64,000 bases of DNA from Gammaproteobacteria bacterium (GTDB taxonomy: Bacteria > Pseudomonadota > Gammaproteobacteria > CBDBNL01 > JAAOII01), in the NCBI GenBank assembly GCA_965207705.1, contig OZ242292.1, forward strand, positions 1,247,696 through 1,311,695. Direction: 5' to 3'. The notes below the pieces were generated by a model. That model worked only from the letters and a program-made list of their open reading frames with translations, did no database searches and had not been told where the DNA came from. Positions within the stretch are counted from its first letter, which is position 1, and the number at the start of each line of letters is the position of its first letter. Shown here piece after piece: positions 31,062 to 64,000 of this stretch. The translations under genes and the position numbers were made by a program.

Positions 31062-31066
31062 TTTCA

Positions 31067-32772: not shown

Positions 32773-35700
32773 ATGAAAATTGCATATATGAAAAGTAGAT
32801 TAAAGAGTAGATTTATTATTATTTTCTTATCTCTGATCGCGGTGGGGTGTGCTGGATCAGAAAATAATAATGGAAGCGGTCAGTCCCCTACTCCCCTTAC
32901 CCCTACTCCCCTTACCCCTACTCCCCTTACATGCGCCGATAATCCCGATGTATGTTCGCCGCCCCATCTTACGGCTTTATACGGCGGCGGTGTGTTCTAC
33001 TTTAACGAAGCTACGGAGATTAACCAAACTGTCAACATTAGCGAAGGAGAGAAACAAACTTTCTATGCTATTATCCATGATTCCGATATTTTATCTGGCG
33101 AATCTATTAATGTTACCATCAATAGTACTATTAAATTAGATACTAATATTACAGATAGTTTATATGGCTATGTTTCTCCACCACTTAAGATGGATTCCGA
33201 GAGTATTCCATCCGCGCTTGAAAACTACACAAATGCTGAAGGATATGAGATTTTTATCTTTACCTTAGGAGAAGACCTTTTATTAGATGATAGAGTGGTC
33301 GGAGAACATAAGATTTTAGTTGTCTCTATTGATACCAAGGGATTGGAGGGTTCTTCTAAGATAGTAGTTGTGATTGAGAACGTCAATGATGCTCCCGTAA
33401 TATCCGCCCTGACTAGTTTAGATGGGGTTGTCTCAATAGGTGGAGATGTTTTTGAAGTATTTGAGGGAGGCGATAATGGGGCTATTAAAGTAATTGTAAA
33501 TGATGCGGATATACAACATGGAGACGTTGTTGGCTTGAATATTACTGACGCTAATCTGCCGACTGGAGTTATATCCATTGAAGCGAATAAATTATCCCAG
33601 CCCGATGTTGTAAATAATCAAGTAGAGTTTACAATCCATATTGCCTCTGAGCTTATGCAGGATACTGATATAGGTGAATATCCATTAGACCTTTTGGCTT
33701 ATGATGAACTTGGCGAAGCAAAAGATAAAAGGACCATTACTCTGAAAGTGAAAAACACCGATGATACAGGTAAAATCAACGATCCGGCAATTAGCGGTGG
33801 GGTTAGTAAGCTGGGTAGCGTGGATGGTAGCCCGGATACCTTCACAATTGATGAGAGGCAAAACGGGCAGATTAAAGTTGTAATCTCTGATGAGGATTTA
33901 ATCCACTCTTCGCAGCTTGAATATACAATAACCGGCGACCCTATTAGGGAAGGATTATTAAACATAACCAGAGTTGAATCCTTGTCTTCTGCTGAGGAAC
34001 ATATATTTCTCATTGATATCGGCAAGAGTGGCGGTCCGATTGATGATGCGGATATTGGAAATTACAACTTGAATCTGCGCATATTTGATGTTGGCGCAGA
34101 TAGGAGAGTAGACGCCCTTTATCCTTTTGTGTTGGAGATAAACAATGTGCCTGAACCGACTGCTATTATTAATGTGCAGGCGGGACAGGGAGCTGTAGCA
34201 GGAACAGGAGCCAATTATTTTGTGCTTAAAGAGGAAATTTTAGCATCCCTTGACATTATAGTTATGGATGAAGACCTTGTTAATCCGCTTGCTCAAGAGA
34301 ACATAACAATGGAAACTATACCTAGCGATTTACCGAATGACTTACTGCTTACTAAAAGTTTATATGTTACCCGTCCTAATACGGTTGGCGGAAATCAGGC
34401 AACGTTTACCCTGGAAATTGCTGCTCCACGCAACGAAGATGCGCGGGACGATAATTACACAATCCCCTTCATAATAAGCGGCGCAGGAGGCAGATCATTA
34501 GTGGGCGAGATTAGCATTAAAATTGAGAACGTAAATGATGCGCCTGTAATATCTGCCCTGACTCACTCAGGCGGAGTTAGCAGGGCAGCTCCCGCAGAGG
34601 AGAATACCTTTATAGTGTCCGAAGGCGGAGTTAATGGAGCTATTACAGTAACGGTTGAGGATCCTGATATACAGCATGGAGACATAGTCAGCTTAGAGAT
34701 AAGCAATGATGCGCTATTAGGTGACTCTGCATTTATTGATAAATATTTTTCAGTTGAAGAAAACATAACAGCGCCCAATCAAGTAGAGTTTACAATCCAT
34801 ATTGCCTCTGAGCTTATGCAGGATACTGATATAGGTGAGCATCATTTTCAATTGTCGGTTTACGATGATTTTGCCGGCTCTGCTACTCGCGACTTCATTG
34901 TTATAGTTGAAGACACCAATGACTTAACTACTATTTCTAATTTCGGTTGGACGGGTAATTTGACGAGCATTAGTCGGGCGCCGAACAACGGAGGAGACCT
35001 ATTTACAATTTATGAAGGACAAAGCGGACAAATTGAGTTCACATTTTCTGATGAGGATTTAGCCCTCACTCCGCTAGTTATATCTAACATAACAGGCGAC
35101 TCTATAGATTCGCAAATTATAAACGCTACTATTAGAACGAAACTATCATCGCCTGATGAAAGAATATTGACGATTAATATTGGAAACAACTCAAGCGGAA
35201 CTCAGAAAATTGATGATGCGCATATTGGTACTTATGAGCTTAGTTTAAATATTTCCAGTTCTGCTGGAGAAGTCGCCATTAGCTATCCATTCGCTTTACA
35301 GATTATTAATGTTGAGGAGCAACCGCGTATTATTAAAATATTGCCTAACTTTGGATTGAATAGCGGACCTATTGCCAATTCATTTATATTGACACAAAAT
35401 ATAGCGACATCTTTTATAATTGTGGTGGAGGATGAAGATTTTGCCAGTCCTCAAAACCAAGAAAATATTAGAATAGCTGCCTCTCATCCCACCGACTCTA
35501 ATTATCCATTTTTAACTCTGGTGTCTTATGAGAGTCCGCAGATTAATCTGCCAGACATAGCGGGAGGCAAGCGCGCCACCTTTATAGCCAAGATTGCCGC
35601 ACCGTCAAATGATTTTGTGGGCGAGCATACTCTATCCATAACTGCTATTGATTCTTCAGTCAGGACTGCGCATTTAAATTTAAATCTCACCGTTCTAAAT

Positions 35701-38580
35701 GTCAATGATGCTCCGAGGATTATTAATATAACGAGTTCGGGCTCTGTTAGACGCAGCAGTGTGGATAATTTCGTTGTTGCTGAGGGAGCAAGCCCTGAAG
35801 GTGGTATTGACGTAACAGTCGAAGATATAGATTTTGTTTTGCGCGATAGGGTTAGTTTGGCTGTTGCCAGCGCCACCCTTGACGCTAAGTTTATATCCGT
35901 TGCCAAAGCGCATACAGATGAATCGGATGCCGATTCTAACCACCAAGTAATATTTAATATAGATATTCCATCCGAGTCGTTGAATGATGCCGAGGTGGGA
36001 ACTCATATCTTGGAAATAAACGCAACAGATGCTGAGGGAGTAGTCGCTACACGCCAAGTTAATTTAGTTGTTGAGAATGTTAATGATGCTCCTGAAATTG
36101 TTGAGATTACTCATGTAGGGGGAATCAGTAAGACACGATCAGGTGAATTTGATCTATATCAACTGAATGAGGGCGGCGCTGGATTTTTGAATATTACGAT
36201 TGCGGATGAAGATTTAGTTCATTCACACGAGAATATAACAGTCAGCTGGGATAACCCCTTATCTGATGAATTATTATCATTTAACAAACAATTTTTTACT
36301 TCTGTTGATGCTAATGATGGGACAGTTAATCTTGTCTTGTGGTTAGGGCAAGGAGCTGACTTTGATGATGTTCACATAGACAACTACGTTATAGCTCTAT
36401 CAATATTTGATGGTAATGATGTAAGAATTAATCCGATAAAATCAAGTATACTCCTTGAGATTGTTAATGTCCCTGAACGTCCTTTCTTTCCACAGCCAAA
36501 CCATCATATAACTATATTTCAACAATCTGGCGCAGTTATAATGCCAGCTGGGACAGTCATAGCAACCATCGGGGAGGCATACTGTTCAGTAGCAGATTCA
36601 ACATCTGGTTGTGAGTATCCTGCGCCAGTTCTCGTGGCAAGTGATCCAGATTCTGGTGATGCGGCAAAATTAATTTATGAAATTGGACCTCGTGGCGCAG
36701 AAAAATTTTATGTAGACGGTTTGCAAATCAAAAATCGTATCACGCTCATAACTGGTGTTCGTCCGAATTTTATTATTAACGCTATAGATCCTAGTGGTAT
36801 GAAGGTGGCTCGATACAGAGAAGCGTTTGTTACTGTGTATGTTAAAGATACAAATAATTTCAATCAAGATTTTGATGGTGATGGAGTTTATGACCCTTAT
36901 GATGGGGCTCCCATCAACCCTGCTGCGCAAACCATGGGCAGTGGAACACGCGCTGACCCGTATCTTATCCATAATATTTATCAATTGCAGGCAATAGCTG
37001 GAGTTGACCATGAAGGGAATAGTTTGCAAGCATCTGAGTTTACAGGGAACTCTTATTTGTATGGGAATGGGGATGGGGTGAATGAATTGGCGGAGCAGCT
37101 CAGCCGCCATTATCGTTTGGCAAATAATGTAATAGCTTCCATCACCTCAGATTGGAATGACGGCGGCGGATTTACACCTATAGGGGTAGGTGTTTGTAAT
37201 AGCGATAACACGCAATGCGATGCCTCCACGGTAGCTCGCAGAGTGGTTGGATCCCCAGTGCGCTTTAGCGGAACATTTGATGGAGCGAATTTTGAAATTA
37301 GTAACTTAGCGATCAATAGGAAATCAAGCTATCTTGGACTATTCGGCGAGGCAGGAGATGGCAGTGTTATTGTTAATTTAAAATTAACTTCGGCAAATAT
37401 TATAAATTCTGCCACTCGCTCAAATCCAAGCGCTGCAGTCAAATTTAGCCATGGAGGTCTCTTAGTGGGGCAAATGTTAGGCGGCACCATAGATAATGTC
37501 CATACTACTGGAAGGTTAGTTGCTTTGGATTATAAATATGCAGGCGGTGTGGTGGGGTCGCTTAGTCCATCGACGAATAGAACAATACCTGGCATAATAA
37601 CAAACTCTATGGCGGACGTTGATATTACTGCCAATGGCATTGAATTTGGTGGATTAGTGGGTGTGTTGGGGATTAACTCTCTCATACAAGCATCTAACGC
37701 CAAAGGGAATGTAATGTCCGCTGTAAATGATAATAATGCGCTTCTTGCTAATTATGTAGGAGGTTTAGTCGGAATATCTCGTGGCTATATATTTGCTTCT
37801 TATGCTAAGGGTGATGTGCGCGGCTTTTCTAATGTGGGCGGGTTGGCTGGAAACGTGCTCGGAGGCGCAACAACTGCTAGCTTTGCTACTGGTGATGTTG
37901 AAGGAATCATACAAGTTGGTGGATTAGTTGGTCAGATGTTAGCGGGTACTCACAGATATTTGTATTATAGCGGACAGCTTATTCGTTCTTCTTATACCTC
38001 GGCAACACCAGAATTTATAGGAGGTATAATAGGAAGATTATGGGCAAGAACAACTATTTACAGTGTTATTAATATGCGCTCCAGCAATCCTTATGACACA
38101 CCTAAAGGAGGGTTAGTATTTGGTCTCCTTGATCTAACTGTAGTTCAAGATATCCCTAATATTCATAATGCCTATTCAATTTACTTCCCTGACAATCCTT
38201 TGGGTTACATTGCACATAAAAGTTATGGAACAGCACAGGGCGGACCGCTTTCTCTTCTTGGGGACAACGCCGCTAGTATTAAAGCAATACCTGTGGTTCA
38301 GTTGAAATATTGCTCTAACGACGCACTTTTTCAGGGGTTGTTTTGCACTGGTTTATTCAATAATAATTTTTGGAGGGATTTACGTGTCTCGTCATTAGGT
38401 TCAAGCTATAATGTTGATTGGTCCATTCCCTCTGATAATTATCCCGCCCTTAAAGTGCAACGAGTTACTGGGACGGGAGAGCTTGATGATGCCAGTATTC
38501 TTCCTTCGCCCGAAGAGCAAAGATGTCATACTGAACCGCAATATACTCACCCCATTCACTGCCCGACAACTACTCGCTAA
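32773..38580 (+). CDS. Giant cadherin-like/GLUG lipoprotein, array paralog 1 (no central cassettes)
   Basis: 1,935 aa. The leader is MKIAYMKSRLKSRFIIIFLSLIAVGC (lipobox AVGC). Cadherin-like domains end in (I/V)ENVNDAP. The C-terminal head at 36955-38577 (DPYLIHNIYQLQAIAGVDH.., GLUG units) follows a DFDGDGVYDPYDG motif. Confidence 0.88.
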   Translation: MKIAYMKSRLKSRFIIIFLSLIAVGCAGSENNNGSGQSPTPLTPTPLTPTPLTCADNPDVCSPPHLTALYGGGVFYFNEATEINQTVNISEGEKQTFYAIIHDSDILSGESINVTINSTIKLDTNITDSLYGYVSPPLKMDSESIPSALENYTNAEGYEIFIFTLGEDLLLDDRVVGEHKILVVSIDTKGLEGSSKIVVVIENVNDAPVISALTSLDGVVSIGGDVFEVFEGGDNGAIKVIVNDADIQHGDVVGLNITDANLPTGVISIEANKLSQPDVVNNQVEFTIHIASELMQDTDIGEYPLDLLAYDELGEAKDKRTITLKVKNTDDTGKINDPAISGGVSKLGSVDGSPDTFTIDERQNGQIKVVISDEDLIHSSQLEYTITGDPIREGLLNITRVESLSSAEEHIFLIDIGKSGGPIDDADIGNYNLNLRIFDVGADRRVDALYPFVLEINNVPEPTAIINVQAGQGAVAGTGANYFVLKEEILASLDIIVMDEDLVNPLAQENITMETIPSDLPNDLLLTKSLYVTRPNTVGGNQATFTLEIAAPRNEDARDDNYTIPFIISGAGGRSLVGEISIKIENVNDAPVISALTHSGGVSRAAPAEENTFIVSEGGVNGAITVTVEDPDIQHGDIVSLEISNDALLGDSAFIDKYFSVEENITAPNQVEFTIHIASELMQDTDIGEHHFQLSVYDDFAGSATRDFIVIVEDTNDLTTISNFGWTGNLTSISRAPNNGGDLFTIYEGQSGQIEFTFSDEDLALTPLVISNITGDSIDSQIINATIRTKLSSPDERILTINIGNNSSGTQKIDDAHIGTYELSLNISSSAGEVAISYPFALQIINVEEQPRIIKILPNFGLNSGPIANSFILTQNIATSFIIVVEDEDFASPQNQENIRIAASHPTDSNYPFLTLVSYESPQINLPDIAGGKRATFIAKIAAPSNDFVGEHTLSITAIDSSVRTAHLNLNLTVLNVNDAPRIINITSSGSVRRSSVDNFVVAEGASPEGGIDVTVEDIDFVLRDRVSLAVASATLDAKFISVAKAHTDESDADSNHQVIFNIDIPSESLNDAEVGTHILEINATDAEGVVATRQVNLVVENVNDAPEIVEITHVGGISKTRSGEFDLYQLNEGGAGFLNITIADEDLVHSHENITVSWDNPLSDELLSFNKQFFTSVDANDGTVNLVLWLGQGADFDDVHIDNYVIALSIFDGNDVRINPIKSSILLEIVNVPERPFFPQPNHHITIFQQSGAVIMPAGTVIATIGEAYCSVADSTSGCEYPAPVLVASDPDSGDAAKLIYEIGPRGAEKFYVDGLQIKNRITLITGVRPNFIINAIDPSGMKVARYREAFVTVYVKDTNNFNQDFDGDGVYDPYDGAPINPAAQTMGSGTRADPYLIHNIYQLQAIAGVDHEGNSLQASEFTGNSYLYGNGDGVNELAEQLSRHYRLANNVIASITSDWNDGGGFTPIGVGVCNSDNTQCDASTVARRVVGSPVRFSGTFDGANFEISNLAINRKSSYLGLFGEAGDGSVIVNLKLTSANIINSATRSNPSAAVKFSHGGLLVGQMLGGTIDNVHTTGRLVALDYKYAGGVVGSLSPSTNRTIPGIITNSMADVDITANGIEFGGLVGVLGINSLIQASNAKGNVMSAVNDNNALLANYVGGLVGISRGYIFASYAKGDVRGFSNVGGLAGNVLGGATTASFATGDVEGIIQVGGLVGQMLAGTHRYLYYSGQLIRSSYTSATPEFIGGIIGRLWARTTIYSVINMRSSNPYDTPKGGLVFGLLDLTVVQDIPNIHNAYSIYFPDNPLGYIAHKSYGTAQGGPLSLLGDNAASIKAIPVVQLKYCSNDALFQGLFCTGLFNNNFWRDLRVSSLGSSYNVDWSIPSDNYPALKVQRVTGTGELDDASILPSPEEQRCHTEPQYTHPIHCPTTTR
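32887..32931 (+). repeat. 15-nt tandem repeat x3 encoding (PTPLT)3 just after the lipobox Cys
   Basis: CCTACTCCCCTTACC is present three times here and twice in paralogs 3 and 4 (PTPLTPTPLT). Paralog 2 has a variant, PTPLTPTPPT. Confidence 0.85.
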
Positions 38581-38777: not shown

Positions 38778-41700
38778 ATGAAAATTACATATATGAAAAG
38801 TAGATTAAAGAGTAGATTTATTATTGTTTTCTTGTCTCTGATCGCTGTGGGGTGTGCTGGATCAGGAAATAATAATGGAAGCGGTCAGTCCCCTACTCCC
38901 CTTACCCCTACTCCCCCTACATGTGCCGATAATCCCGATGTCTGTTCGGTGCCCTATCTTACAGCTTTATACGGCGGCGGTGTATTCTACTTTAACGAAG
39001 CTACGGAGATTAACCAAACTGTCAAAATTAGCGAAGGAGAGAAGCAAACCTTCTATGCTATTATCCATGATTCCGATATATCATCTGGAGAATCTATTAA
39101 TGTTACCATCAATAGTACTATTAAATTAGATACTGATATTATAGATAGTTTAAATGGCTATGTTTCTCCACCACTTAAGATGGATCCCGAGACGGATCCC
39201 GAGAGTATTCCATCCGCGCTTGAAAACTACACAAATGCTGAAGGATATGAGATTTTTAACTTTACCTTAGGGGAAGACCTTTTATTAGATGATAAAGTGG
39301 TCGGAGAACATGAGATTTTAGTTGTCTCTATTGATGCCCGGGGATTGGAGGGTTCTTCTAAGATAGTAGTTGTGATAGAGAACGTCAACGATACGCCTGT
39401 AATATCCTCCTTGGAACGTTCAGGCGGAGTTACCGCAAGCAGTGAAAATATTTTTGAAGTATATGAGGGAGGTGAAGAAGGAATTATTAGGGTAAAAGTT
39501 AGAGATGATGATATACAGCACGGAGATATTGTTAGCTTAAATCTTATCAGTGCCGATTTGCCTGGCATTATATCTATTGAGGAGGATAAATTATCCCAGT
39601 CCGATGCTGTAAATAACCAAGTAGAGTTTGTGTTAAATGTTGCGTCTGGTCTTCTGCGGGATGCTGATATAGGCGAGCATCAGTTTCGTTTTTTAGTGCA
39701 TGATGAATTTGGTGGGATAGATGGCAGCGGGAATTTTACTCTGAATGTCAAAAATACTGATGACGCAAGCAGCGCTACCTATTCAGCAATTAGAGGCGGG
39801 GTTAGTAAGCTGGACAGTGTGGATGGTAGCCCAGATATATTCGCAATTAGTGAAGGACAAAGCGGGCAGATTGAGGTTATTATCTCTGATGAGGATTTGT
39901 CCCGCACTTCGCAGCTTGAATATACAATAACTAGCGACTCTATTAGGCAAGGGGTTAGGGCAGGATTATTAAATATAAGCAGAGTTGAATCCTCATCTTC
40001 TGCTGAGGAACAAATATTCCTCATTGATATTGGAAAAAATGGCAGTCCGATTGATGATGCGGATATTGGAATTTACAACTTGAATCTGCGCGTAGCAGAT
40101 GATGACAGGGCTGTAAATGCCAATTATCCTTTTGTTCTCAAGGTTAATAATGTTGTTGAGCAGCCCAATATTATTAGCGTGTTGGCGGGAGAAGGTGTTA
40201 GCGCTTCAGCCGATAATAACTCTTGGATATTATCAGAAGATGTTGTAGGTTCTTTGAGTATCGTGGTGGAGGATGAAGATTTTGGTAGTGCGCAAAATCA
40301 AGAGAGTATAAACATTACCATTACAAGCCCCATTCTTCCTGAGAACTTCATAACTGTTCCACAATCAGAGATTAGCCGCCCCGATAGTTCTACGAATAAC
40401 AGAGCCACTTTTAGAATTGAATTTACCGCTCCTGCTAATGAACTGGTTGGAGAACATAATATTACTTTTTCCTTTACTGATACAGATGGGAACATAGTTT
40501 TATATAAGAGGGAGTTTAGAATTGAGAACGTCAATGATGCTCCCGTAATATCCGCCCTGACTAGTTTAGATGGGGTTGTCTCAATAGGTGGAGATGTTTT
40601 TGAAGTATATGAGGGAGGTGAAGAAGGAATTATTAGGGTAAAAGTTAGAGATGTGGATATACAGCATGGAGATATTGTTAGCTTGAATATTACCAGTGCT
40701 AATCTGCCGACTGGGGTTATATCCATTGAAAAGGATAAATTATCCCAGTTGGATACTATAAATAATCAAGTGGAGTTTGTATTAAATGTAGCGTCTGGGC
40801 TTCTGCGGGATGCTGATATAGGTGAACATTTGTTGAACTTCTTGGTTTATGATGAATTTGGCGGGGCAGAGGACACAAGAACTATTACTCTAAAAATCAA
40901 AAATACTGATGACGCAAGCAGCGCTACCTATTCAGCAATTAGAGGCGGGGTTAGTAAGCTGGACAGTGTGGATGGTAGCCCAGATACATTCGCAATTAGT
41001 GAAGGACAAAGCGGGCAGATTGAGGTTATTATCTCTGATGAGGATTTGTCCCGCACTTCGCAGCTTGAATATACAATAACTAGCGACTCTATTAGGCGAG
41101 GGGTTAGGGCAGGATTATTAAATATAAGCAGAGTTGAATCCTCATCTTCTGCTGAGGAAAATATATTCCTCATTGATATCGGCAAGAGCGGCAGTCCGAT
41201 TGATGATGCGGATATCGGAAGTTACAACTTGAATCTACGAGTAGAGAATGATGCTGGAACTGTGAATGCAAATTATCCTTTTGTTCTCACAGTTAATAAT
41301 GTTGTTGAGCAGCCCAATATTATTAGCGTGTTGGCGGGAACAGGTGTTAGCGCTTCAGCCGATAATAATTCTTGGATATTATCAGAAGATGTTGTAGGTT
41401 CTTTGAGTATCGTGGTGGAGGATGAAGATTTTGGTAGTGCGCAAAATCAAGAGAGTATAAACATTACCATTACAAGCCCCACTCTTCCTGAGAACTTCAT
41501 AACTGTTCCACAATCAGAGATTAGCCGCCCCGATAGCTCTACGAATAACAGAGTCACTTTTAGAATAGAATTTACCGCTCCTGCTAATCAACTAGTTGGA
41601 GAACATAATATCACTTTTTCCTTTACTGATACTGATGGAAATACAGCATTATATGAGAGGGAGTTTAGAATTGAGAACGTCAATGATGCCCCCGTAATAT

Positions 41701-54900: not shown

Positions 54901-57900
54901 AATATTTTTGAAGCATTTGAAGGTGGTGAAGAAGGAATTATTAGGGTAAAAGTTAGAGATGATGATATACCGCATGGAGATATTATTGGCTTGAATATTA
55001 CCAGCGCTAATCTGCCAGCTGGGATTATATCCATTGAAAAGGATAAATTATCCCAGTCCGATGTTGTAAATAACCAGGTAGAGTTTGTAGTCCATATTGC
55101 GTCTGGGCTTCTGCGGGATGCTGATATAGGTGAATATCTATTAGACCTTTTGGTTTATGATGAACTTGGCAAGGCAGAAGACAGTAGAACTATTACTCTA
55201 AAAGTTAATAATGTTGTTGAGCAGCCAAATATTATTAGCGTGTTGGCGGGAGAAGGTGTTAGCGCTTCAACCGATGGCAGCTCTTGGATATTATCAGAAG
55301 ATGTTGCGGGTTCTTTGAGTATCGTGGTGGAGGATGAAGATTTCGGTAGTACGGAAAACCAAGAGAGTATAAACATTACTATTATGAGTTCCACTCTGTC
55401 TGAGAACTTCATAACTGTTCAACAATCAGAGATTAGCCGCCCCGACAGTTCTACGAATAACAGAGCCACTTTTAGAATTGAATTTACCGCTCCTGCTAAT
55501 GAACTAGTTGGAGAACATAATATTACTTTTTCCTTTACTGATACAGATGGGAACATAGTTTTATATAAGAGGGAGTTTAGAATTGAGAACGTCAATGATG
55601 CTCCTGAGGTATATATGATGGATTCTGCTCGCGGAGTTACCTCGATTGGTGAAAATATTTTTGAAGTATATGAGGGAGGTGAAGATGGAATTATTAGGGT
55701 AAAAGTTAGAGATGTGGATATACAGCATGGAGATATTGTTAGCTTAAATCTTATCAGCGCCGATTTGCCTGGCATTATATCTATTGAGGAGGATAAATTA
55801 TCCCAGTCGGATGCTATGAATAATCAAGTGGAGTTTGTATTAAATGTAGCGTCTGGTCTTCTGCGGGATGCTGATATAGGCGAGCATCAGTTTCGTTTTT
55901 TAGTGCATGATGAATTTGGTGGGATAGACGGCAGCGGGAACTTTACTCTGAATGTCAAAAATACCGATGACACAAGCAGCATCAATTATTCAGCAATTAG
56001 CGGAAGGATTAATAAGCTGAGTAATGCGGATGGCGTCCCAGATACCTTCGCAATTAGTGAGGGGCAAAGCGGGCAAATTCAAGTTATAATCTCTGATGAG
56101 GATTTAATCCACTCTTCGCAGCTTGAATATACAATAACTGGCAACTCTATTAGGCAAGGGATTAGGGAAGGATTATTAAACATAACCAGAGTTGAATCCT
56201 CATCTTCTGCTGAGGAACATATATTTCTCATTGATATCGGCAAGAGCGGCAGTCCAATTGATGATGCGGATATTGGAAATTACAACTTGAATCTGCGCAT
56301 ATTTGATGTTGGCGCAGATAGGAGAGTAGACGCCCTTTATCCTTTTGTGTTGGAGATAAACAATGTGCCTGAACCGACTGCTATTATTAATGTGCAGGCG
56401 GGACAGGGAGCTGTAGCAGGAACAGGAACTAATTATTTTGTGCTTACAGAGAAAATTTTAGCATCCTTTGACATTATAGTTATGGATGAAGACCTTGTAA
56501 ATCCGCTTGCTCAAGAGAACATAACAATGGAAACTATACCTAGCGATTTACCGAATGACTTACTGCTTACTAAAAGTTTATATGTTACCCGTCCTGATAC
56601 GGTTGGCGGAAATCAGGCAACCTTTACCCTGGGAATTGCTGCTCCACGCAACGAAGATGCGCGGGACGATAATTACACAATCCCCTTCATAATAAGTGGC
56701 GCAGGAGGCAGATCATTAGTGGGCGAAATTAGCATTAAAATTGAGAACGTCAATGATGCGCCTGTAATATCTGCCCTGACTCACTCAGGCGGAGTTAGCA
56801 GGACCGGCCTGCCTGTAGAGAGTAATACTTTTATAGTGTCCGAGGGCGGAGTTAATGGATCTATTACAGTAACGGTTGAGGATCCTGATATACAGCATGG
56901 AGACACAGTAGGTTTAGAGATAAGCAATGATGCGTTATTAGGGGACGCTACATTTATTGATAAATATTTTTCAGTTGAAGAAAACATAGCAGCGCCCAAT
57001 CAGGTAGAGTTTGCAATCCATATTGCTTCTGAGCTTATGCAGGATACTGATATAGGCGAGCATCATTTTCAATTAGTGGTTTTTGATGATTTTGGCGGCT
57101 CTGCTACTCGCGACTTCATTGTTATAGTGGAAGACACCGATGACTTAACCACTATTTCTAATTTCGGCTGGACGGGTAATTTGACGAAGGTTGCTCCAAT
57201 ATCTAGTCCGGCGCCGAGCAACGGAGGAGACCTGTTTACAATTTATGAAGGACAAAGCGGACAAATTGAGTTCACATTTTCTGATGAAGATTTATCTCTC
57301 GCTTCGTTAGTTGTATCTAACATAACAGGCGACCCTATAGATTCGCAAATTATAAACGCTACTATTAGAACAAAACCATCATCGCCTGATGAAAGAATAT
57401 TGACAATTAATATTGGAAACAACTCAAGCGGAACTCAGAAAATTGATGATGTCCATATCGGCACTTATGAACTTAGCTTAAATATTTCCAGTTCTGCTGG
57501 AGAAGTTGCCATTAGCTATCCATTCACTTTACAGATTATTAATGTTGAGGAGCAACCGCGTATTATTAAAATATTGCCTAGCTTTGGATTGAGTAGCGGA
57601 CCTGCTGCCAATTCCTTTATATTGACACAAAATGTAGCGACAACTTTTATAATTGTGGTGGAGGATGAAGATTTTGCCAGCCCGCAAAACCAAGAGAATA
57701 TTATAATGACTTCCTCTCATCCCACCGACTCTAATTATCCATTTTTAACTCTGGTGTCTTATGAGAGTCCGCAGATTAATCTTCCAGACATAGCGGGAGG
57801 CAAGCGCGCCACCTTTATAGCCAAGATTGCCGCACCGTCAAATGATTTTGTGGGCGAGCATACTCTATCCATAACTGCTATTGATTCTTCAGTCAGGACT

Positions 57901-60828
57901 GCGCATTTAAATTTAAATCTCACCGTTCTAAATGTCAATGATGCTCCGAGGATTATTAATATAACAAGTTCGGGTTCTGTTAGCCGCATTGATATGGATA
58001 ATTTTGTTGTTGCTGAGGGAGCAAGCCATGAGGGTGGCATTGACGTAACAGTTGAAGATATAGATTTTCTCGTGCGCGATAGGGTTAGTTTGACTGTTGC
58101 CAGCGCCACTCTTAACACTAAGTTTATATCCGTTGCCAAAGCGCATACAGATGAATCGGATGCCAACCCTAACCACCAAGTAATATTTAATATAGATATT
58201 CTTTCCGAATCCTTGAATGATGCCGAGGTGGGAACTCATATCTTGGAAATAAACGCAACAGATGCTGAGGGAGTAGTCGCTACACGCCAAGTTAATTTAG
58301 TTGTTGAGAATGTTAATGACGCTCCTGAAATTGTTTCAATTACTTATACAGGGGATATCAGTAAGACACGAATGGGTAAATTTGATATATATCAACTGAA
58401 TGAGGGCGGCGCTGGATTTTTGCATATTAATATTATGGATGAAGATTTAATTCATTCACACGAGAATATAACAGTAAGATGGAATAACCCCTACCGCTTA
58501 TCTGATAGATTATTATCATTTAACAAACAATTTTTTACTTCTATTGATGCTGATGATGGGACAGTTAATCTTATTTTGCAGCTGGGGCAAGGCGCTGACT
58601 TTGATGATATTCACATAAACGGCTACGTTATAGGTCTATCAATATTTGATGGTAATAATGTAAGAATTAATCCGATAAAGTCAAGTATATTTCTTAAGAT
58701 TATTAATGTCCCTGAACCTCCCTTTTTCCCACAGCTAGACCACCATATAGCTGTATTTGAACAATCTGGCGCAGACCAATTGCCAGCTGGGACAGTCATA
58801 GCAACTGTCGGGGAGGCATACTGTTCAGTAGTAGGTTCAACATCTGGTTGTGGGTCTCCTGCGCCAGTTCTCGTGGCAGATGATCCAGATCCTGGTGATG
58901 CGGCAAATTTAATTTATGAAATTAGATCTGTTGGCACAGAAAAACTTTATGTGGACGGTTTGCAAATTAAAAATCGTATTCCGCTCATAGTTGATTCTCA
59001 AGCAAGTTTTTTTATTAACGCTATAGATCCTAGTGGTATGAAGGTGGCTCCAGACACAGAAGCGATTGTTACTGTGCATGTTAAAGGTACAAATAATCTC
59101 AATCAAGATTTTGATGGTGATGGAGTTCGTGACCCTTATGATGGCGCTCCCACCAACCCTGCTGCGCAAACCAAGGGCAGTGGGACACGCGCTGACCCAT
59201 ATCTTATCCATAATATTTTTCAACTGCAGGCAATAGCTGGAGTTGACCATCTAGGGAATAGTTTGCAAGCATCTGAGTTTACGAGGAACTCTTATTTGTA
59301 TGGGAATGGATTAGCAGCTCAGCTTGGCAGTCACTATCGTTTGGCAAATGATGTAAGTGCTTCCATCACCTCAGCTTGGAATGGTGGTAGTGGATTTATA
59401 CCTATAGGGACAGGTGTTTGTAATAGCGATGACACGCAATGCGATGCCACAACGGCAGCCCGTTTGGTGTATGGAACCTCAGTGCGCTTTAGCGGAACAT
59501 TTAATGGAGCGAATTTTGAAATCAGCGGCTTAACCATCAATAGACAGTCAAGCTATATTGGACTATTCGGTGAAGCAGGGTATGGCAGCATTATTTCTAA
59601 TTTAAGATTAACCTCGGCAAACATTATAAACCCCGCCACTCGCTCACATCCAAGCGATACAGTCAAATTTAGCCATGGAGGAGTATTAGTGGGACAAATG
59701 TTAGGAGGCACCATAGATAATGTCCATACTACTGGAACGTTAACTGGAGTTGGTTACAGATATGGAGGTGTAGCGGGAACACTTGGTCCATCGGCGAGTT
59801 TAGGAATACCTGGCATAATAACAAACTCTATGGCGGACGTTGACATTACTGCCAATGGCGCTGGATTTGGCGGATTGGTGGGTTTATTAGGGGGCAACTC
59901 TTTCATAAATGCATCTAATGCCAAAGGGAATGTGAGGCCCGCTTTAGATAATATCAATCAACTTCTTGCTCATGATGTAGGCGGATTAGTTGGAATATCT
60001 TACGGTAATATATTTGCTTCTTATGCTTTGGGTGACGTGCGCGCCTCTGATTATGTGGGCGGATTGGTCGGTAAAGTACTACAAGGCGCAACAACTGCAA
60101 GCTTCGCTGCTGGTGATGTTAGAGGGAATGAATACGTTGGTGGATTATTTGGTGCAGCGTCAGCGGGCATTCACAGGTATTTGTATTATAGTGGTTTGCT
60201 CATTGGTTCTGGTTATATCATGGGTGGCATAGTAGGGGAATTGGGGTATGCGGCAATTATTTACAGCGTTATTAATATGCGTTCCCCGCATCCTGGTAAT
60301 AGACCTATTAATGGGGGGCTAATATTTGGTCATATTGATCTGACTGCCAATCCCGGCCCTAATATTAATCCCAGCCCTAGTATTCGTGATGCCTATTCAA
60401 TTGATGTCGCTGCCGATTCTTTGGGTTATATTGTACATGAAAGTTATGAAGGGGGAGAGGGTGCGCCGCTTTCTCTTCTTGATGGCAACTCAGGGAGTAT
60501 TAAAAAAATATCTGCAAATCAGCTAAAATATTGTAGCGGTAACGGACATACTTTTAGCGGCAGCGGTATTGCTTCTATCGTTAATGTAGATTGCACTGGT
60601 TTATTCCATGATAATTATTGGGGGGATAGAACTATCCAATCATTAGGTGCAAACTATAATATTGATTGGAATTTGGTTGCTGGTTCTTATCCTACCATTA
60701 AAGTGCAACGAGTTACTGGGGTGGGAGTGCTTGATGCTGCCAATATTATTCCTTCGCATAGAGAGCAAAGATGTTATATTGAACCTGCATATACTCACGT
60801 CACCTACTGCCCGATAACTCCTCCCTAA
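51985..60828 (+). CDS. Giant cadherin-like/GLUG lipoprotein, array paralog 3 (four A-C cassettes, divergent head)
   Basis: 2,947 aa. The leader is MKITYMKSRLKSRFIIIFLSLIAVGC. The head at 59194-60825 diverges more from paralogs 1 and 2 than the rest of the protein does. Confidence 0.88.
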   Translation: MKITYMKSRLKSRFIIIFLSLIAVGCGGSNNNTSGQSPTPLTPTPLTCADDFQVCSPPHLTALYGGDVFYFNEATGINQTVKISEGEKQTFYAIIHDSDISSGESINVTINSTTIDFADSLYGYVSPPLKMDPETDPESIPSALENYTNTEGYEIFNFTLGEDLLLDDKVVGEHEISVVSIDTRGLEGSSKIVVVIENVNDTPVISSLERSGGVTASSENIFEVYEGGEERIIRVKVRDDDIQHGDIVGLNITSANLPTGVISIEKDKLSQSDTVNNQVEFIVHIASGLLRDADIGEHLLNFLVYDELGKAEDSRTITLKVNNVAEQPNIISVLAGAGVSASADGSSWILSEDVAGSLSIVVEDEDFGSTENQESLRIDIRSSTLPENFITVQQSEISSPDSSTNNRVTFRIEFTAPANQLVGEHNITFSFTDTDGNTALYEGEFRIENVNDAPVISALTSLDGVVSIGENIFEAFEGGEEGTIRVAVRDDDIPHGDIVGLNITSANLPAGVISIEKDKLSQSDTINNQVEFIVHIASGLLRDADIGEHLLNFLVYDEFGKAEDTRTITLKVNNVVEQPNIISVLAGAGVSASADGSSWILSEDVAGSLSIVVEDEDFGSTENQESLRIDIRSSTLPENFITVQQSEISSPDSSTNNRVTFRIEFTAPANQLVGEHNITFSFTDTDENRALYEGEFRIENVNDAPVISALTSLDGVVSSGENIFEVYEGGEEGIIRVTVRDEDIPHGDIVSLNITSANLPTGVISIEKDKLSQSDTVNNQVEFVLNVASGLLRDADIGEHLLNFLVYDEFGGAEDTRTITLKVNNVVEQPNIISVLAGAGVSASANNNSWTLSEDVAGSLSIVVEDEDLGSPQNQESINITITSPTLPENFITVQQSEISRPDSSTNNRVTFRIEFTAPANELVGEHNITFSFTDTDGNIVLYKREFRIENVNDVPEISMMDSARGVTSSGENIFEAFEGGEEGIIRVKVRDDDIPHGDIIGLNITSANLPAGIISIEKDKLSQSDVVNNQVEFVVHIASGLLRDADIGEYLLDLLVYDELGKAEDSRTITLKVNNVVEQPNIISVLAGEGVSASTDGSSWILSEDVAGSLSIVVEDEDFGSTENQESINITIMSSTLSENFITVQQSEISRPDSSTNNRATFRIEFTAPANELVGEHNITFSFTDTDGNIVLYKREFRIENVNDAPEVYMMDSARGVTSIGENIFEVYEGGEDGIIRVKVRDVDIQHGDIVSLNLISADLPGIISIEEDKLSQSDAMNNQVEFVLNVASGLLRDADIGEHQFRFLVHDEFGGIDGSGNFTLNVKNTDDTSSINYSAISGRINKLSNADGVPDTFAISEGQSGQIQVIISDEDLIHSSQLEYTITGNSIRQGIREGLLNITRVESSSSAEEHIFLIDIGKSGSPIDDADIGNYNLNLRIFDVGADRRVDALYPFVLEINNVPEPTAIINVQAGQGAVAGTGTNYFVLTEKILASFDIIVMDEDLVNPLAQENITMETIPSDLPNDLLLTKSLYVTRPDTVGGNQATFTLGIAAPRNEDARDDNYTIPFIISGAGGRSLVGEISIKIENVNDAPVISALTHSGGVSRTGLPVESNTFIVSEGGVNGSITVTVEDPDIQHGDTVGLEISNDALLGDATFIDKYFSVEENIAAPNQVEFAIHIASELMQDTDIGEHHFQLVVFDDFGGSATRDFIVIVEDTDDLTTISNFGWTGNLTKVAPISSPAPSNGGDLFTIYEGQSGQIEFTFSDEDLSLASLVVSNITGDPIDSQIINATIRTKPSSPDERILTINIGNNSSGTQKIDDVHIGTYELSLNISSSAGEVAISYPFTLQIINVEEQPRIIKILPSFGLSSGPAANSFILTQNVATTFIIVVEDEDFASPQNQENIIMTSSHPTDSNYPFLTLVSYESPQINLPDIAGGKRATFIAKIAAPSNDFVGEHTLSITAIDSSVRTAHLNLNLTVLNVNDAPRIINITSSGSVSRIDMDNFVVAEGASHEGGIDVTVEDIDFLVRDRVSLTVASATLNTKFISVAKAHTDESDANPNHQVIFNIDILSESLNDAEVGTHILEINATDAEGVVATRQVNLVVENVNDAPEIVSITYTGDISKTRMGKFDIYQLNEGGAGFLHINIMDEDLIHSHENITVRWNNPYRLSDRLLSFNKQFFTSIDADDGTVNLILQLGQGADFDDIHINGYVIGLSIFDGNNVRINPIKSSIFLKIINVPEPPFFPQLDHHIAVFEQSGADQLPAGTVIATVGEAYCSVVGSTSGCGSPAPVLVADDPDPGDAANLIYEIRSVGTEKLYVDGLQIKNRIPLIVDSQASFFINAIDPSGMKVAPDTEAIVTVHVKGTNNLNQDFDGDGVRDPYDGAPTNPAAQTKGSGTRADPYLIHNIFQLQAIAGVDHLGNSLQASEFTRNSYLYGNGLAAQLGSHYRLANDVSASITSAWNGGSGFIPIGTGVCNSDDTQCDATTAARLVYGTSVRFSGTFNGANFEISGLTINRQSSYIGLFGEAGYGSIISNLRLTSANIINPATRSHPSDTVKFSHGGVLVGQMLGGTIDNVHTTGTLTGVGYRYGGVAGTLGPSASLGIPGIITNSMADVDITANGAGFGGLVGLLGGNSFINASNAKGNVRPALDNINQLLAHDVGGLVGISYGNIFASYALGDVRASDYVGGLVGKVLQGATTASFAAGDVRGNEYVGGLFGAASAGIHRYLYYSGLLIGSGYIMGGIVGELGYAAIIYSVINMRSPHPGNRPINGGLIFGHIDLTANPGPNINPSPSIRDAYSIDVAADSLGYIVHESYEGGEGAPLSLLDGNSGSIKKISANQLKYCSGNGHTFSGSGIASIVNVDCTGLFHDNYWGDRTIQSLGANYNIDWNLVAGSYPTIKVQRVTGVGVLDAANIIPSHREQRCYIEPAYTHVTYCPITPP
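52573..55584 (+). repeat. Cassette array in paralog 3: four 753-nt A-C units
   Basis: ENVND landmarks are at 52573, 53326, 54079, 54832 and 55585, giving exactly 753 nt for each interval. Confidence 0.88.
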
Positions 60829-60963
60829 ATTAGAATAACACATCGCAATACTTGCGGTTATGTTACTGCAAGTAGGGAGTCGCTTATTCCTTTCAGGTTT
60901 ATGTATTTCCTTGCCCAACCCCTACCTTATTACCTTGCGTAAATATAAGTATAAAAATGGTAT

Positions 60964-61064: not shown

Positions 61065-64000
61065 ATGAAGGTTACATGTTTAAAAGGTAATTTATTTAAA
61101 TTATTAAAGAATAAATTATTTATTGTTTTCTTGTCTCTGATCGCGGTGGGGTGCGGTGGATCAAATAATAATACAAGCGGTCAGTCCCCTACTCCCCTTA
61201 CCCCTACTCCCCTTACATGCGCCGATGATTTCCAGGTATGTTCGCCGCCCCATCTTACAGCTTTATACGGCGGCGGTGTATTCTACTTTAACGAAGCTAC
61301 GGGGATTAACCAAACTGTCAAAATTAGCGAAGGAGAGAAGCAAACTTTCTATGCTATTATCCATGATTCCGATATATCATCTGGTGAATCTATTAATGTT
61401 ACCATCAATAGTACAACTATTGATTTTGCGGATAGTTTAGATGGCTATGTTTCTCCACCACTTAAGATGGATCCCAAGACGGATCCCGAGAGTATTCCAT
61501 CCGCGCTTGAAAACTACACAAATGCTGAAGAATATGAAATTTTTAACTTTACCTTAGGGGAAGACCTTTTATTAGATGATAAAGTGGTCGGAGAACATAA
61601 TATTTCAGTTGTCTCTATTGATACCAAGGGATTGAAGGGTTCTTCTAAGATAGTAGTTGTGATAGAGAACGTCAACGATACGCCTGTGATATCCGCTCTT
61701 ACCACTTCAGGCGGAGTAAGAGCAAGAAATGGAAATATTTTTGAAGTATATGAGGGAGGTGAAGAAGGAATTATTAGGGTAAAAGTTAGAGATGATGATA
61801 TACAGCATGGAGATATTGTTGGCTTGAATATTACCAGCGCTAATCTGCCAGCTGGGATTATATCCATTGAAAAGGATAAATTATCCCAGTCCGATGTTAT
61901 AAATAATCAAGTGGAGTTTGTAGTCCATATTGCGTCCGGGCTTCTGCAGGACACTGACATAGGTGAATATCCATTAGACCTTTTGGTTTATGATGAATTT
62001 GGCGGAGAAAAAGATAAAAGAACTATAACTCTAAAAGTTAATAATGTTGCTGAGCAGCCCAATATTATTAGCGTGTTGGCGGGAACAGGTATTAGCGCCG
62101 CAGCGAGTGATAACTCTTGGATATTATCAGAAGATGTTGCGGGTTCTTTGAGTATCGTGGTGGAGGATGAGGATTTCGGTAGTACGGAAAATCAAGAGAG
62201 TTTGCGCATTGACATTAGGGGTTCTACCCTGCCTGAGAACTTCATAACTGTTCCACAATCAGAGATTAGCAGCCCTGATAGCTCTACAAATAATAGAGTC
62301 ACTTTTAGAATAGAATTTACCGCTCCTGCTAATCAACTAGTTGGAGAACATAATATCACTTTTTCCTTTACTGATACAGATGGAAATACAGCATTATATG
62401 AGGGGGAGTTTAGAATTGAGAACGTTAATGATGCTCCTGTAATATTCTCATTGACTCGTTCAGACGGAGTTTTCTCAAGTGGTGAAAATATTTTTGAAGC
62501 GTTTGAAGGTGGTGAAGAAGGAACTATTAGGGTGGCAGTTAGAGATGATGATATACCGCATGGAGATATTATTGGCTTGAATATTACTGGCGCTAATCTG
62601 CCGACTGGAGTTATATCTATTGAAGCGGATAAATTATCCCAGTCGGATACTGTAAATAACCAAGTAGAGTTTATAGTCCATATTGCGTCTGGGCTTCTGC
62701 GGGATGCTGATATAGGCGAACATTTGTTGAACTTCTTGGTTTATGATGAATTTGGTAAGGCAGAAGACAGTAGAACTATAACTCTAAAGGTTAATAATGT
62801 TGTTGAGCAACCGAATATTATTAGCGTGTTGGCGGGGGCAGGTGTTAGCGCCGCAGCCGATGGTAGCTCTTGGACGTTATCAGAAGATGTTGCGGGTTCT
62901 TTGAGTATCGTGGTGGAGGATGAAGATTTTGGTAGTGTGCAAAATCAAGAGAGTATAAATATTACCATTACAAGCCCCACCCTTCCTGAGAACTTCATAA
63001 CTGTTCAACAATCGGAGATTAGCCGCCCCGATAGTTCTACGAATAACAGAGTCACTTTTAGAATTGAATTTACCGCTCCTACTAATCAACTAGTTGGAGA
63101 ACATAATATCACTTTTTCCTTTACTGATACTGATGGGAACATAGTTTTATATAAGAGGGAGTTTAGAATTGAGAACGTCAATGATGCTCCCGTAATATTC
63201 GCCCTGACTAGTTTAGATGGGGTTGTCTCAATAGGTGGAGATGTTTTTGAAGTATTTGAGGGAGGCGATAATGGGGCTATTAAAGTAATTGTAAATGATG
63301 CGGATATACCGCATGGAGATATTATTGGCTTGAATATTACTAGCACTAATCTACCGACTGGAGTTATATCTATTGAAGCGGATAAATTATCCCAGCCGGA
63401 TACTATAAATAATCAAGTGGAGTTTGTAGTCCATATTGCGTCCGGGCTTCTGCGGGATGCTGATATAGGCGAACATTTGTTGAACTTCTTGGTTTATGAT
63501 GAATTTGGCGGGGCAGAGGACACAAGAACTATTACTCTAAAAGTTAATAATGTTGTTGAGCAGCCCAATATTATTAGCGTATTGGCGGGAACAGGTGTTA
63601 GCGCCGCAGCCGATGGTAGCTCTTGGATATTATCAGAAGATGTTGCAGGTTCTTTGAGTATCGTGGTGGAGGATGAAGATTTTGGTAGTGCGCAAAATCA
63701 AGAGAGTATAAACATCACCATTACAAGCCCCACTCTTCCTGAGAACTTCATAACTGTTCAACAATCAGAGATTAGCCGCCCCGACAGTTCTACGAATAAC
63801 AGAGTCACTTTTAGAATTGAATTTACCGCTCCTGCTAATGAACTAGTTGGAGAACATAATATTACTTTTTCCTTTACTGATACAGATGGGAACATAGTTT
63901 TATATAAGAGGGAGTTTAGAATTGAGAACGTCAACGATGTTCCTGAGATATCCATGATGGATTCTGCTCGCGGAGTTACCTCAAGCGGTGAAAATATTTT
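61065..64000 (+). CDS. Giant cadherin-like lipoprotein, array paralog 4 (3'-truncated by the window edge)
   Basis: The frame is open from ATG 61065 (alternative ATG 61053) to the window end, which is why it is missing from the ORF track. The product starts MKVTCLKGNLFKLLKNKLFIVFLSLIAVGCGGSNNNTSGQSPTPLTPTPLTCADDFQVCS.. and is near-identical to paralog 3 from FLSLIAVGC onward. Confidence 0.85.
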   Translation, partial: MKVTCLKGNLFKLLKNKLFIVFLSLIAVGCGGSNNNTSGQSPTPLTPTPLTCADDFQVCSPPHLTALYGGGVFYFNEATGINQTVKISEGEKQTFYAIIHDSDISSGESINVTINSTTIDFADSLDGYVSPPLKMDPKTDPESIPSALENYTNAEEYEIFNFTLGEDLLLDDKVVGEHNISVVSIDTKGLKGSSKIVVVIENVNDTPVISALTTSGGVRARNGNIFEVYEGGEEGIIRVKVRDDDIQHGDIVGLNITSANLPAGIISIEKDKLSQSDVINNQVEFVVHIASGLLQDTDIGEYPLDLLVYDEFGGEKDKRTITLKVNNVAEQPNIISVLAGTGISAAASDNSWILSEDVAGSLSIVVEDEDFGSTENQESLRIDIRGSTLPENFITVPQSEISSPDSSTNNRVTFRIEFTAPANQLVGEHNITFSFTDTDGNTALYEGEFRIENVNDAPVIFSLTRSDGVFSSGENIFEAFEGGEEGTIRVAVRDDDIPHGDIIGLNITGANLPTGVISIEADKLSQSDTVNNQVEFIVHIASGLLRDADIGEHLLNFLVYDEFGKAEDSRTITLKVNNVVEQPNIISVLAGAGVSAAADGSSWTLSEDVAGSLSIVVEDEDFGSVQNQESINITITSPTLPENFITVQQSEISRPDSSTNNRVTFRIEFTAPTNQLVGEHNITFSFTDTDGNIVLYKREFRIENVNDAPVIFALTSLDGVVSIGGDVFEVFEGGDNGAIKVIVNDADIPHGDIIGLNITSTNLPTGVISIEADKLSQPDTINNQVEFVVHIASGLLRDADIGEHLLNFLVYDEFGGAEDTRTITLKVNNVVEQPNIISVLAGTGVSAAADGSSWILSEDVAGSLSIVVEDEDFGSAQNQESINITITSPTLPENFITVQQSEISRPDSSTNNRVTFRIEFTAPANELVGEHNITFSFTDTDGNIVLYKREFRIENVNDVPEISMMDSARGVTSSGENI
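61665..64000 (+). repeat. Cassette array in paralog 4: at least three 753-nt A-C units
   Basis: ENVND landmarks are at 61665, 62418, 63171 and 63924 (753 nt apart). The array continues past the window end. Confidence 0.85.

Follow-up and report, generated by a model that had tools for sequence, protein, structure and literature searches.

Tandemly arrayed giant lipoprotein genes built from cadherin-like cassettes, probably reshaped by ordinary homologous recombination in an uncultured gammaproteobacterial clade

Introduction

How do neighbouring genes that share their two ends come to differ several-fold in the number of repeats in between, and does such a difference call for a dedicated genetic switch? 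This question is raised by a 64-kb stretch of the gammaproteobacterial contig OZ242292.1 (positions 1,247,696 to 1,311,695, hereafter the window), in which four consecutive paralogous genes, here called g1 to g4, code for predicted lipoproteins of unusual size. An earlier reading of the letters and open reading frames (ORFs) of this stretch, the original prediction, described them as products of shuffled cadherin-like cassettes and proposed a candidate locus of recombination-driven surface variation. Our analysis leads us to consider it probable that this is a tandem array of giant adhesin-like lipoprotein genes, reshaped by ordinary homologous recombination on the time scale of strain evolution and without a dedicated switch.

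Results

Organization of the gene array

The ORF survey of the window, performed with a cut-off of at least 150 amino acids (aa), returned 14 ORFs, every one of them on the + strand, and ORF calling gave exactly the coordinates predicted for the four array paralogues. Gene g1 (32773..38580) codes for a lipoprotein of 1,935 aa composed of an N-domain, one cassette of three domains (A, B and C), a distal stalk A'B'C'A'', domain X, a cadherin-type EC domain, a GLUG beta-helix and a Cys-containing C-terminal domain. Its paralogue g2 (38778..51836; 4,352 aa) is arranged as N-ABC ABC AC ABC ABC AC ABC ABC-A'B'C'A''-X-EC-head; an alternative in-frame ATG at 38757 would extend it to 4,359 aa and is not conserved in the other array genes. 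In g3 (51985..60828; 2,947 aa) the order is N-AC AC AC AC ABC-A'B'C'A''-X-EC-head, while g4 (61065..64000), cut by the window end after more than 978 aa, reads N-AC AC AC A... and has a leader whose n-region differs from those of the other array genes. The longest reading frame of the array remains uninterrupted over up to 13 kb.

The nucleotide landmark GAGAACGT(C/T)AA(C/T)GAT occurs 18 times in the array, each time where the original prediction had placed it, and the intervals claimed for g2, g3 and g4 agree with those measured. They amount to 1146, 1149, 753, 1137, 1149, 753, 1149 and 1158 nucleotides (nt) in g2, to four times 753 nt followed by 1158 nt in g3, and to three times 753 nt in g4, while in the proteins the corresponding ENVND boundaries are spaced by 251, ~383 and 386 aa. 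Likewise, the leader pattern ..FLSLIAVGC(A/G)GS..SGQSPTPLTPTP..TCAD.. was found in all four genes, and the common 3' part of g1, g2 and g3, predicted at ~4.06-4.09 kb, measures 4,056, 4,065 and 4,086 nt, respectively. Two exact identities cited earlier are also true, the one between 33424-33524 and 45513-45613 at 101 nt and the one between 43561-43644 and 44710-44793 with an extension to 86 nt. Two statements had to be corrected. The boundary taken for the last ENVND landmark is followed by another one further downstream (g1 aa 1101, nt 36073), and g1, described as devoid of cassettes, carries one ABC cassette (33376-34524), equivalent by position to the last cassette of g2 and g3.

Cassette classes and their arrangement

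Cassettes were mapped by the landmarks together with custom domain hidden Markov models, and an all-against-all BLASTP comparison of the landmark-delimited segments separated them into four classes: long cassettes of ~383 aa with mutual identities of 76-90%, short cassettes of 251 aa (78-91%), a "P" cassette in penultimate position that g1, g2 and g3 have in common (383-386 aa, 77-95%), and the common C-terminal part of ~1,350 aa. A long cassette consists of three domains of ~125 aa in the order A-B-C (1,137-1,158 nt), and a short one of A-C (753 nt), that is, of an ABC unit minus B.

The internal array of g2 (39378..46613) holds five ABC cassettes (1137-1149 nt) and two AC cassettes (753 nt, at 41673-42425 and 44712-45464), that of g3 (52573..55584) four AC cassettes of 753 nt each, and that of g4 (61665..63923) three AC cassettes of the same length, after which the A domain of a fourth one starts at 63924. 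The P cassette of g1, an ABC unit at 33376..34524, is the positional orthologue of g2 46614-47771 and g3 55585-56742 (77-95% aa identity), as well as of the last cassette in distant relatives. It is followed by the distal stalk A'B'C'A'' (g1 34525..36072, g2 47772-49319, g3 56743-58305), in which the paralogues share 86-90% of their residues.

Recombination inside the array

The nine AC cassettes of 753 nt can be aligned without gaps at 84-93% identity, and when the unit is divided into thirds, the nearest neighbour of each cassette is not the same from one third to the next. A GENECONV-like permutation of polymorphic sites showed over-long concordant runs in 23 of the 36 AC cassette pairs (p<0.01). 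Exact tracts common to cassettes reach from 80 to 310 nt, the latter being the longest exact repeat in the region (54599 = 63691). Since the cassettes are in frame, 80-92% identical, and share exact tracts of this length, RecA-type unequal crossover and gene conversion probably act on them within and between paralogues.

Exchange between paralogues is also visible at the 3' end. Over the last ~850 nt, dS between g1 and g2 is 0-0.06, compared with 0.1-0.6 elsewhere in the shared C-terminal part, while g3 differs from both of them in the same segment with a dS of ~0.4; we read the g1-g2 tract as a recent gene conversion. Likewise, the internal C domains are 90-98% identical within the window genome versus 55-87% to relatives, and are thus interpreted as homogenised within this genome. 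The proposal that the cassettes serve as substrates of recombination is borne out by both the mosaics and the conversion tracts between paralogues. Together with the loci of related genomes described below, mosaicism and paralogue conversion form three independent lines from which recombination is judged to be real.

Syntenic loci in related genomes

The syntenic locus was reached in six assemblies starting from the cluster of Pif1 orthologues, and the arrays were covered to ~10 kb past pif1. Across the clade the order is conserved as release factor (RF)-LpxD-ACPS-GLUG protein (~2,000 aa)-TrpE-Pif1, followed by the array. In four loci, L008, L009 and L010 among them, the flanks match those of the window with 96-97% identity over >15 kb and up to 17 kb. 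Despite such similarity, the loci vary in how many cassettes they have and in what order, and all the varying first genes lie at the same trpE-pif1 junction; this is the outcome of the locus comparison proposed in the original prediction. The first gene of the window has the structure N-ABC-A'B'C'A''X-head (1,935 aa) and is followed by the second gene of 4,352 aa. In L009 the first gene is N-AC-A B'C'A''X-head (1,790 aa) and the second has 3,990 aa, while N-AC-A B'X-head is found in both L008 (1,530 aa; second gene ~1,685 aa) and L010 (1,527 aa; second gene ~1,670 aa). L009 and L010 are separated by a clean in-frame indel of two domains, ~783 nt long. Furthermore, L008 and L010 have first genes that, relative to the window, are chimeras: they begin like g1, continue with an N-domain and an AC cassette that are nearest to g4 (89-90%), and end in a g1-like head (95-96%).

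Contigs L010 (10x) and L011 (3x), which both come from sample ERZ25069764, differ in the structure of their first genes. Their flanks are ~4% divergent, so that they represent co-occurring strains and not products of a switch. In more distant species the arrays code for proteins of 3066/3197/1301 aa and 2595/1918/2843/1324 aa. Among the loci compared, AC doublets are present only in the species-level group of the window, the distant relatives using ABC triplets, and the terminal P cassette keeps its positional orthology from one species to another.

Sample ERZ25069764 contains at least three related genomes of the clade, a circular 1.86-Mb species (ctg6811_24x_c, which is OZ242303.1; L013 and L001 are the same contig) and two strains of the species group of the window, pointing to a consortium of several species and strains that share a habitat or host.

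Age of the cassettes and selection

Among AC cassettes the mean dS is 0.26 and dN/dS is 0.32, with values of 0.15-0.5 along the unit. Judging from these rates, the AC cassettes are old and under purifying selection, and diversifying selection in the cassettes, considered as an alternative, was rejected at an omega of 0.15-0.5. Between paralogues, omega is ~0.32 in the conserved stalk and 0.42-0.58 in the beta-helix, and rises to 0.8-1.05 in the neck, which is the fastest-evolving part of the protein. The increase is strongest in the head-proximal EC domain (g1 aa 1236-1385; 1.0-1.55), where the g1-g2 confidence interval of 0.91-2.66 does not overlap that of the stalk (0.23-0.45). In the C-terminal 168 aa, the comparison of g3 with g1 and g2 gives ~0.9. 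By these estimates, near-neutral evolution is limited to two domains, the head-proximal EC domain and the C-terminal one. It follows from their high omega that the distal modules are where the paralogues diverge in protein sequence.

Fold of the stalk

The ABC cassette was modelled by AlphaFold2 as three beta-sandwiches (mean pLDDT 76), the type of structure prediction that had been proposed as a check, and the model was matched by Foldseek to multi-Ig and cadherin ectodomain chains. The invariant acidic residues E30, D43xD45, D98 and D110, together with the linkers ENVNDAP and NTDD, are ordered like the cadherin Ca2+ motifs (XEX, DXD, DRE, DXNDN), while the B-to-C linker NNVxEQP is without the acidic pattern. 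In relatives, matches to PF00028 are faint and lie on the head-proximal domain. Whole g1 gave no match against Pfam at E 0.01, and neither the cassette profile nor the head had a meaningful match among sequences of the PDB. The weak Pfam matches in g3 (DUF4625, RHH_8, MG2, HYR) were sub-threshold and were dismissed as beta-sandwich noise. The description of the cassettes as cadherin-like is thus supported by fold and remote homology (AlphaFold, Foldseek and profile), and falls short at the level of the Pfam threshold.

A profile of the ABC cassette was searched against 1.84 billion representative proteins, of which 48 matched at E<=1e-3 and nine at E<=1e-30. The weak matches comprise only a 45-residue motif, a cadherin-like F-G strand plus linker, in proteins with He_PIG, Big_9 and Cadherin_4/5 domains. 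With only nine strong matches in a set of this size, the architecture appears to be clade-restricted and effectively unannotated. The NCBIfam model NF012211 ("tandem-95 repeat protein", cut-off 90 bits) scored a borderline 92.9 bits on g3 and 46 bits on g1, with matches spanning only positions 52-94 of the profile.

Neck, head and C-terminal domain

The neck, consisting of domain X and the EC domain, occupies 36073..36927 in g1 (aa 1101-1385), starting at 49320 in g2 and at 58306 in g3. It is followed in g1 by the GLUG beta-helix head (36928..38073, aa 1386-1767), with six GG[LIV][VAIL]G turns spaced by 26-37 aa, and by a C-terminal domain of 168 aa with conserved cysteines (38074..38577). Each head contains 5-6 such turns. 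The last 835 aa of g1 were modelled by AlphaFold (pLDDT 69) as two beta-sandwiches followed by a beta-helix with a pLDDT of ~90. Among Foldseek matches to the neck sandwiches, cadherin EC pairs dominate (E 1e-6 to 1e-4, TM up to 0.51), and the sole large-scale match to the beta-helix is a weak one to the GLUG-containing IgA1 protease of S. pneumoniae (6xja). The GLUG head of the original prediction is recovered above threshold, as the isolated g1 head reaches 32.5 bits with Pfam Glug (PF07581) against a cut-off of 20.5. The C-terminal 168-aa domain is nearly identical between g1 and g2 (dS 0.045).

Leader and upstream regions

The signal peptide and lipobox of g1, IAVG-C with Cys26, lie at 32773..32850, and their equivalents at 38778-38855 in g2, 51985-52062 in g3 and 61065-61154 in g4 (Cys30). 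In all four leaders a K/R-rich n-region is followed by the h-region FLSLIAV and by the G-C junction at positions 26-30. Each of the four array genes thus has the features of a signal peptidase II lipoprotein, namely a positive n-region, a hydrophobic h-region and a lipobox [LVI][ASTVI][GAS]C within ~15-35 residues of the start, and all 18 family members recovered from seven assemblies have retained the lipobox Cys.

Directly after the lipobox there is a PT-rich linker with a 15-nt repeat. The unit, encoding PTPLT (window 32851-32930 and equivalents), is present in three copies in g1, two in g2-g4, and none or one in relatives. In the n-region of the signal peptide, a unit LKNKL is found once in g4 and four times in its L008 counterpart (L008 16552-16690). 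Small in-frame repeats near the leader therefore vary among both paralogues and strains.

A region of ~150-190 nt upstream of the genes is conserved, as found by comparison of the paralogues (g1 32590..32772, g2 38591-38777, g3 51837-51984, and in part g4 60829-61064). Those of g1, g2 and g3 share both the conservation and sigma-70-like hexamers, with an 11/12 sigma-70-like match at 38591-38618 in g2, and probably hold the own promoter and 5' untranslated region of each gene. Such conservation implies the duplication of entire transcription units. The spaces between the array genes contain no terminator-like hairpins.

Genomic context

Apart from the giant genes, the window contains housekeeping genes coding for PpiD/SurA-like, ProC, YggT, HisS/HisZ-like, PurA, release factor, LpxD, TrpE and Pif1-like helicase proteins, and the presence of LpxD indicates a diderm. 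The best matches of PurA, encoded on ENA contigs of 1.29 and 1.86 Mb, share 92% and 87% of its residues, after which identity falls to 63% and ~50%, and one relative was deposited as "MAG: Gammaproteobacteria bacterium" (OZ242303.1). This drop in identity, together with the record of a metagenome-assembled genome (MAG), points to a clade of uncultured Gammaproteobacteria that is small and deep-branching and has genomes of ~1.8-2.2 Mb.

Two further giant GLUG proteins are encoded upstream of the array on the + strand. The ORF at 144-13574, open at the left window end, contains about seven FN3-like repeats of 87 aa (261-nt period) and 38 GLUG turns placed in serine-rich repeats of ~34 aa; its L007 orthologue is called at 7,174 aa. 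The second (23159-29245) is a GLUG lipoprotein of 2,028 aa with its own lipobox, LSAC. Between the latter and trpE lies a G+C-rich 20-nt tandem repeat, CTGCGCTCCGCCCGCAAAAC, at 29272-29376 (5.2 copies, 98% matches). The block is absent from L009, L010 and L011, whose alignments skip from window position 29248 to 29382, and is probably present in part in L008, which aligns to ~29336; it looks like a strain-variable minisatellite.

All related genomes examined have the gene for the Pif1-family helicase (window 30995-32524) directly before the array, with orthologues from 98% to ~90% identical; its place next to such a repetitive region may be a coincidence or may aid replication or recombination of the array. 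A gene for holo-ACP synthase (ACPS; 126-134 aa), below the 150-aa cut-off used for ORFs of the window, is annotated in relatives in the interval that separates lpxD from the GLUG lipoprotein gene, on the minus strand, at ~window 22643-23159. In L008 (ERZ25069760), positions 1-2027 carry a pair of N6_N4 methyltransferase and CfrBI-like endonuclease genes upstream of a GLUG gene of 2,029 aa. The site of this restriction-modification pair corresponds to window 21594-23158, where other relatives have LpxD and ACPS and the window has LpxD.

Discussion

In regard to the way such an array could work, we envisage that the proteins are exported by the Sec pathway and lipid-modified at the lipobox Cys, which would anchor them in the outer membrane by the N-terminus. 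A rod of cadherin-like or Ig-like beta-sandwiches would then project the C-terminal module, made of the EC domain, the GLUG beta-helix and the Cys-containing end domain, which may bind a ligand at a distance of tens to >100 nm from the cell. The length of the rod would be set by the count of AC (753-nt) and ABC (~1,149-nt) cassettes. A cadherin domain is ~4.5 nm long, and the rods of g1, g2 and g3, with ~10, 29 and 18 domains, could thus measure roughly 45, 125 and 80 nm, respectively. RecA-dependent unequal crossover and gene conversion between the in-frame cassettes would change how long the rod is and bring leaders, stalks and heads into new combinations; closely related strains do differ in both respects, as the mosaic tests and the six syntenic loci show.

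Several points weigh against this picture. The permutation test that identified the mosaic pairs ignores phylogenetic structure, and the related assemblies are metagenomic, with frameshifts in the 3x contig L011. Rearrangement does not seem to be very frequent, because cassette dS is ~0.26 and positionally orthologous cassettes occur in distant relatives. The terms adhesin and surface-exposed are read from the architecture, and lipoproteins of 200-450 kDa would have to pass a diderm's outer membrane, yet the window contains no secretion genes. With Pfam Cadherin (PF00028) the ABC cassette reaches 15.5 bits (E 0.024), below the gathering threshold of 28.8 bits, and with cassettes sub-threshold in this sense, rigidification by Ca2+ in the manner of cadherins is a conjecture.

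Tandem paralogues on the same strand with long exact identities are also what would be expected of programmed, high-frequency antigenic or length variation, in which neighbouring paralogues act as donors of cassettes for one or more expression sites, as in pilE/pilS, vlsE or msp2. The mosaic cassettes, the near-identical 3' tract of g1 and g2, and the occurrence of two structural variants in one sample would fit such a system as well. We nevertheless consider it quite unlikely, since g1 to g3 are each intact, with start, leader, stop and a conserved promoter-like upstream region, and truncated or promoterless cassettes are absent from the array. Furthermore, the 32.5-64 kb region contains no homopolymer of at least 8 nt (at least 7 for G or C) and no simple-sequence tract of more than four dinucleotide units, and none of the ORFs of the window codes for a recombinase, an invertase or a reverse transcriptase. 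The cassette dS of ~0.26 with an omega of ~0.3 also speaks against it, and the variants from the same sample, differing by ~4% in their flanks, belong to different strains. Such old cassettes under purifying selection, with terminal cassettes positionally orthologous across species, would on the other hand suit an ordinary family of paralogues, formed by old duplications and point mutation, in which repeats are structural spacers and recombination no longer takes place. This explanation is already disfavoured, and we hold it to be improbable, as it leaves without a cause the mosaic tracts in 23/36 cassette pairs, the g1-g2 tract with dS near 0, the chimeric first genes of L008 and L010, the cassette indels between genomes whose flanks are 96-97% identical, and the internal C domains that are more alike within the genome (90-98%) than to relatives (55-87%).

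The remaining two explanations concern the nature of the sequence itself and the route of secretion. A highly repetitive region, probably obtained from a metagenome assembly, could contain repeats that were expanded, collapsed or mis-joined. However, the longest exact repeat of 310 nt and a divergence of 8-16% between cassettes should be easily resolved by long accurate reads, frames stay open over up to 13 kb, and six independent assemblies, one labelled circular and one titled chromosome, carry equivalents of 1,301-3,990 aa at the syntenic site. Contig names that state the coverage and end in l or c presumably follow the convention of a long-read metagenome assembler. The collapsed or non-repetitive structure named in the original prediction as a possible refutation is contradicted by long-read-style assemblies with equivalent giant genes. 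We regard an assembly artefact as very improbable. The same holds for the possibility that these are giant adhesins or toxins of the RTX type, exported by a type 1 secretion system (T1SS), with the N-terminal Cys motif being incidental. Their size and tandem Ig-like stalk do resemble adhesins of the LapA, SiiE and MpIBP type, yet g1-g4 contain zero RTX nonapeptides (GGxGxDxUx), no match to HemolysinCabind or to a T1SS component was found in the proteins or in the window, the syntenic loci being alike in this respect, and n-region, h-region and lipobox Cys are conserved in 18/18 homologues, all of which makes this route highly unlikely. Ordinary homologous recombination among duplicated lipoprotein genes therefore remains our preferred explanation. 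Of the original prediction, the part on recombination is supported, while for the antigenic variation that it suggested no trace of a programmed switch was seen.

The architecture had been thought not to represent a described adhesin family. This stands for the exact combination of modules, with its nine representatives at E<=1e-30, while the design principle is known from the Lig proteins of Leptospira (PMC7821625). In Leptospira, identity of the lig paralogues extends over -266 to +1890, and the lig genes are documented to recombine with each other (PMC7821625). Judged by design, LigA/LigB/LigC appear to be the closest analogue, of which the array is not a member. Both systems have a lipoprotein signal peptide, a tandem Ig-like stalk and a distinct C-terminal extension, and in both the paralogues share upstream and 5' coding sequence and recombine with each other. 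Lig domains, however, are of the Big_2 type and not near-identical, the proteins have 1,200-1,900 aa, and there is no tandem array, no multi-domain cassettes and no GLUG beta-helix, whereas our array has no Pfam match to Big_2 (PF02368), is built of two- and three-domain cassettes, reaches 4,352 aa and belongs to a gammaproteobacterial host.

Likeness to other systems is more partial. The RTX giant adhesins LapA, SiiE, MpIBP, FrhA and BapA are also very large surface proteins of Gram-negative bacteria with an Ig-like extender and distal C-terminal ligand-binding modules, and in adhesins of this type the repeat number varies between strains. They differ by C-terminal RTX repeats with a T1SS signal, by a retention module at the N-terminus and by T1SS genes next to their own, all of which the array lacks, while the proteins of the array would be anchored by an N-terminal lipid. 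In the Vlp/Vsa lipoproteins of Mycoplasma and in Gram-positive Alp/Rib, Aap/SasG and Esp, the copy number of in-frame repeats changes by homologous recombination, altering length and shielding or reach. Copy-number change of in-frame tandem repeats by this process is the feature shared with the array; the repeats of Vlp/Vsa and Alp/Aap-type proteins, however, are short or near-identical, and thus change at high frequency, and several are accompanied by phase-variable promoters or invertases, in contrast to units of 753-1,149 nt that are 8-16% divergent and have no switch element.

In its head, passing Pfam Glug, the array resembles GLUG proteins (PF07581) such as the N-terminal region of streptococcal IgA1 protease/Zmp and some FHA-type TpsA exoproteins. 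Database homologues of the head carry Glug together with Peptidase_M26_N or TPS domains, whereas the array proteins are without a peptidase or TPS domain, and the combination of a lipobox with a stalk of cadherin-like cassettes is confined to this clade. Finally, NF012211 and the He_PIG/Big_9/Cadherin_4/5 proteins are related through the borderline score of g3 and the remote profile matches; these cover the last 40-45 residues of the domain (F-G strands and linker), and the domains of the array have ~125 aa versus ~95 aa.

A bolder view would be that within one host-associated population recombination between paralogues continually re-deals whole domains, from AC and ABC cassettes to N-domains and heads, so that stalk length and head vary from cell to cell, and that proteins of up to 450 kDa are exported by a lipoprotein route not yet described at this size in Gammaproteobacteria. 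We regard this as unlikely. The locus raises the question of how a 4,000-aa lipoprotein is displayed by a diderm, which ligand the GLUG beta-helix may have and whether stalk length tunes reach. Candidates for the ligand-binding surface are two fast-evolving parts, the cadherin-type domain next to the head and the domain at the C-terminus. As the six giant GLUG proteins (144-13574, 23159-29245 and g1-g4) make up 78% of the 64-kb window, and the genomes of the clade have ~1.8-2.2 Mb, these proteins are likely central to a lifestyle that is probably host- or particle-associated. The array offers a natural, sequence-resolved example of how the length and the modules of a protein can be re-dealt in whole folded domains, with related genomes as snapshots of the process.

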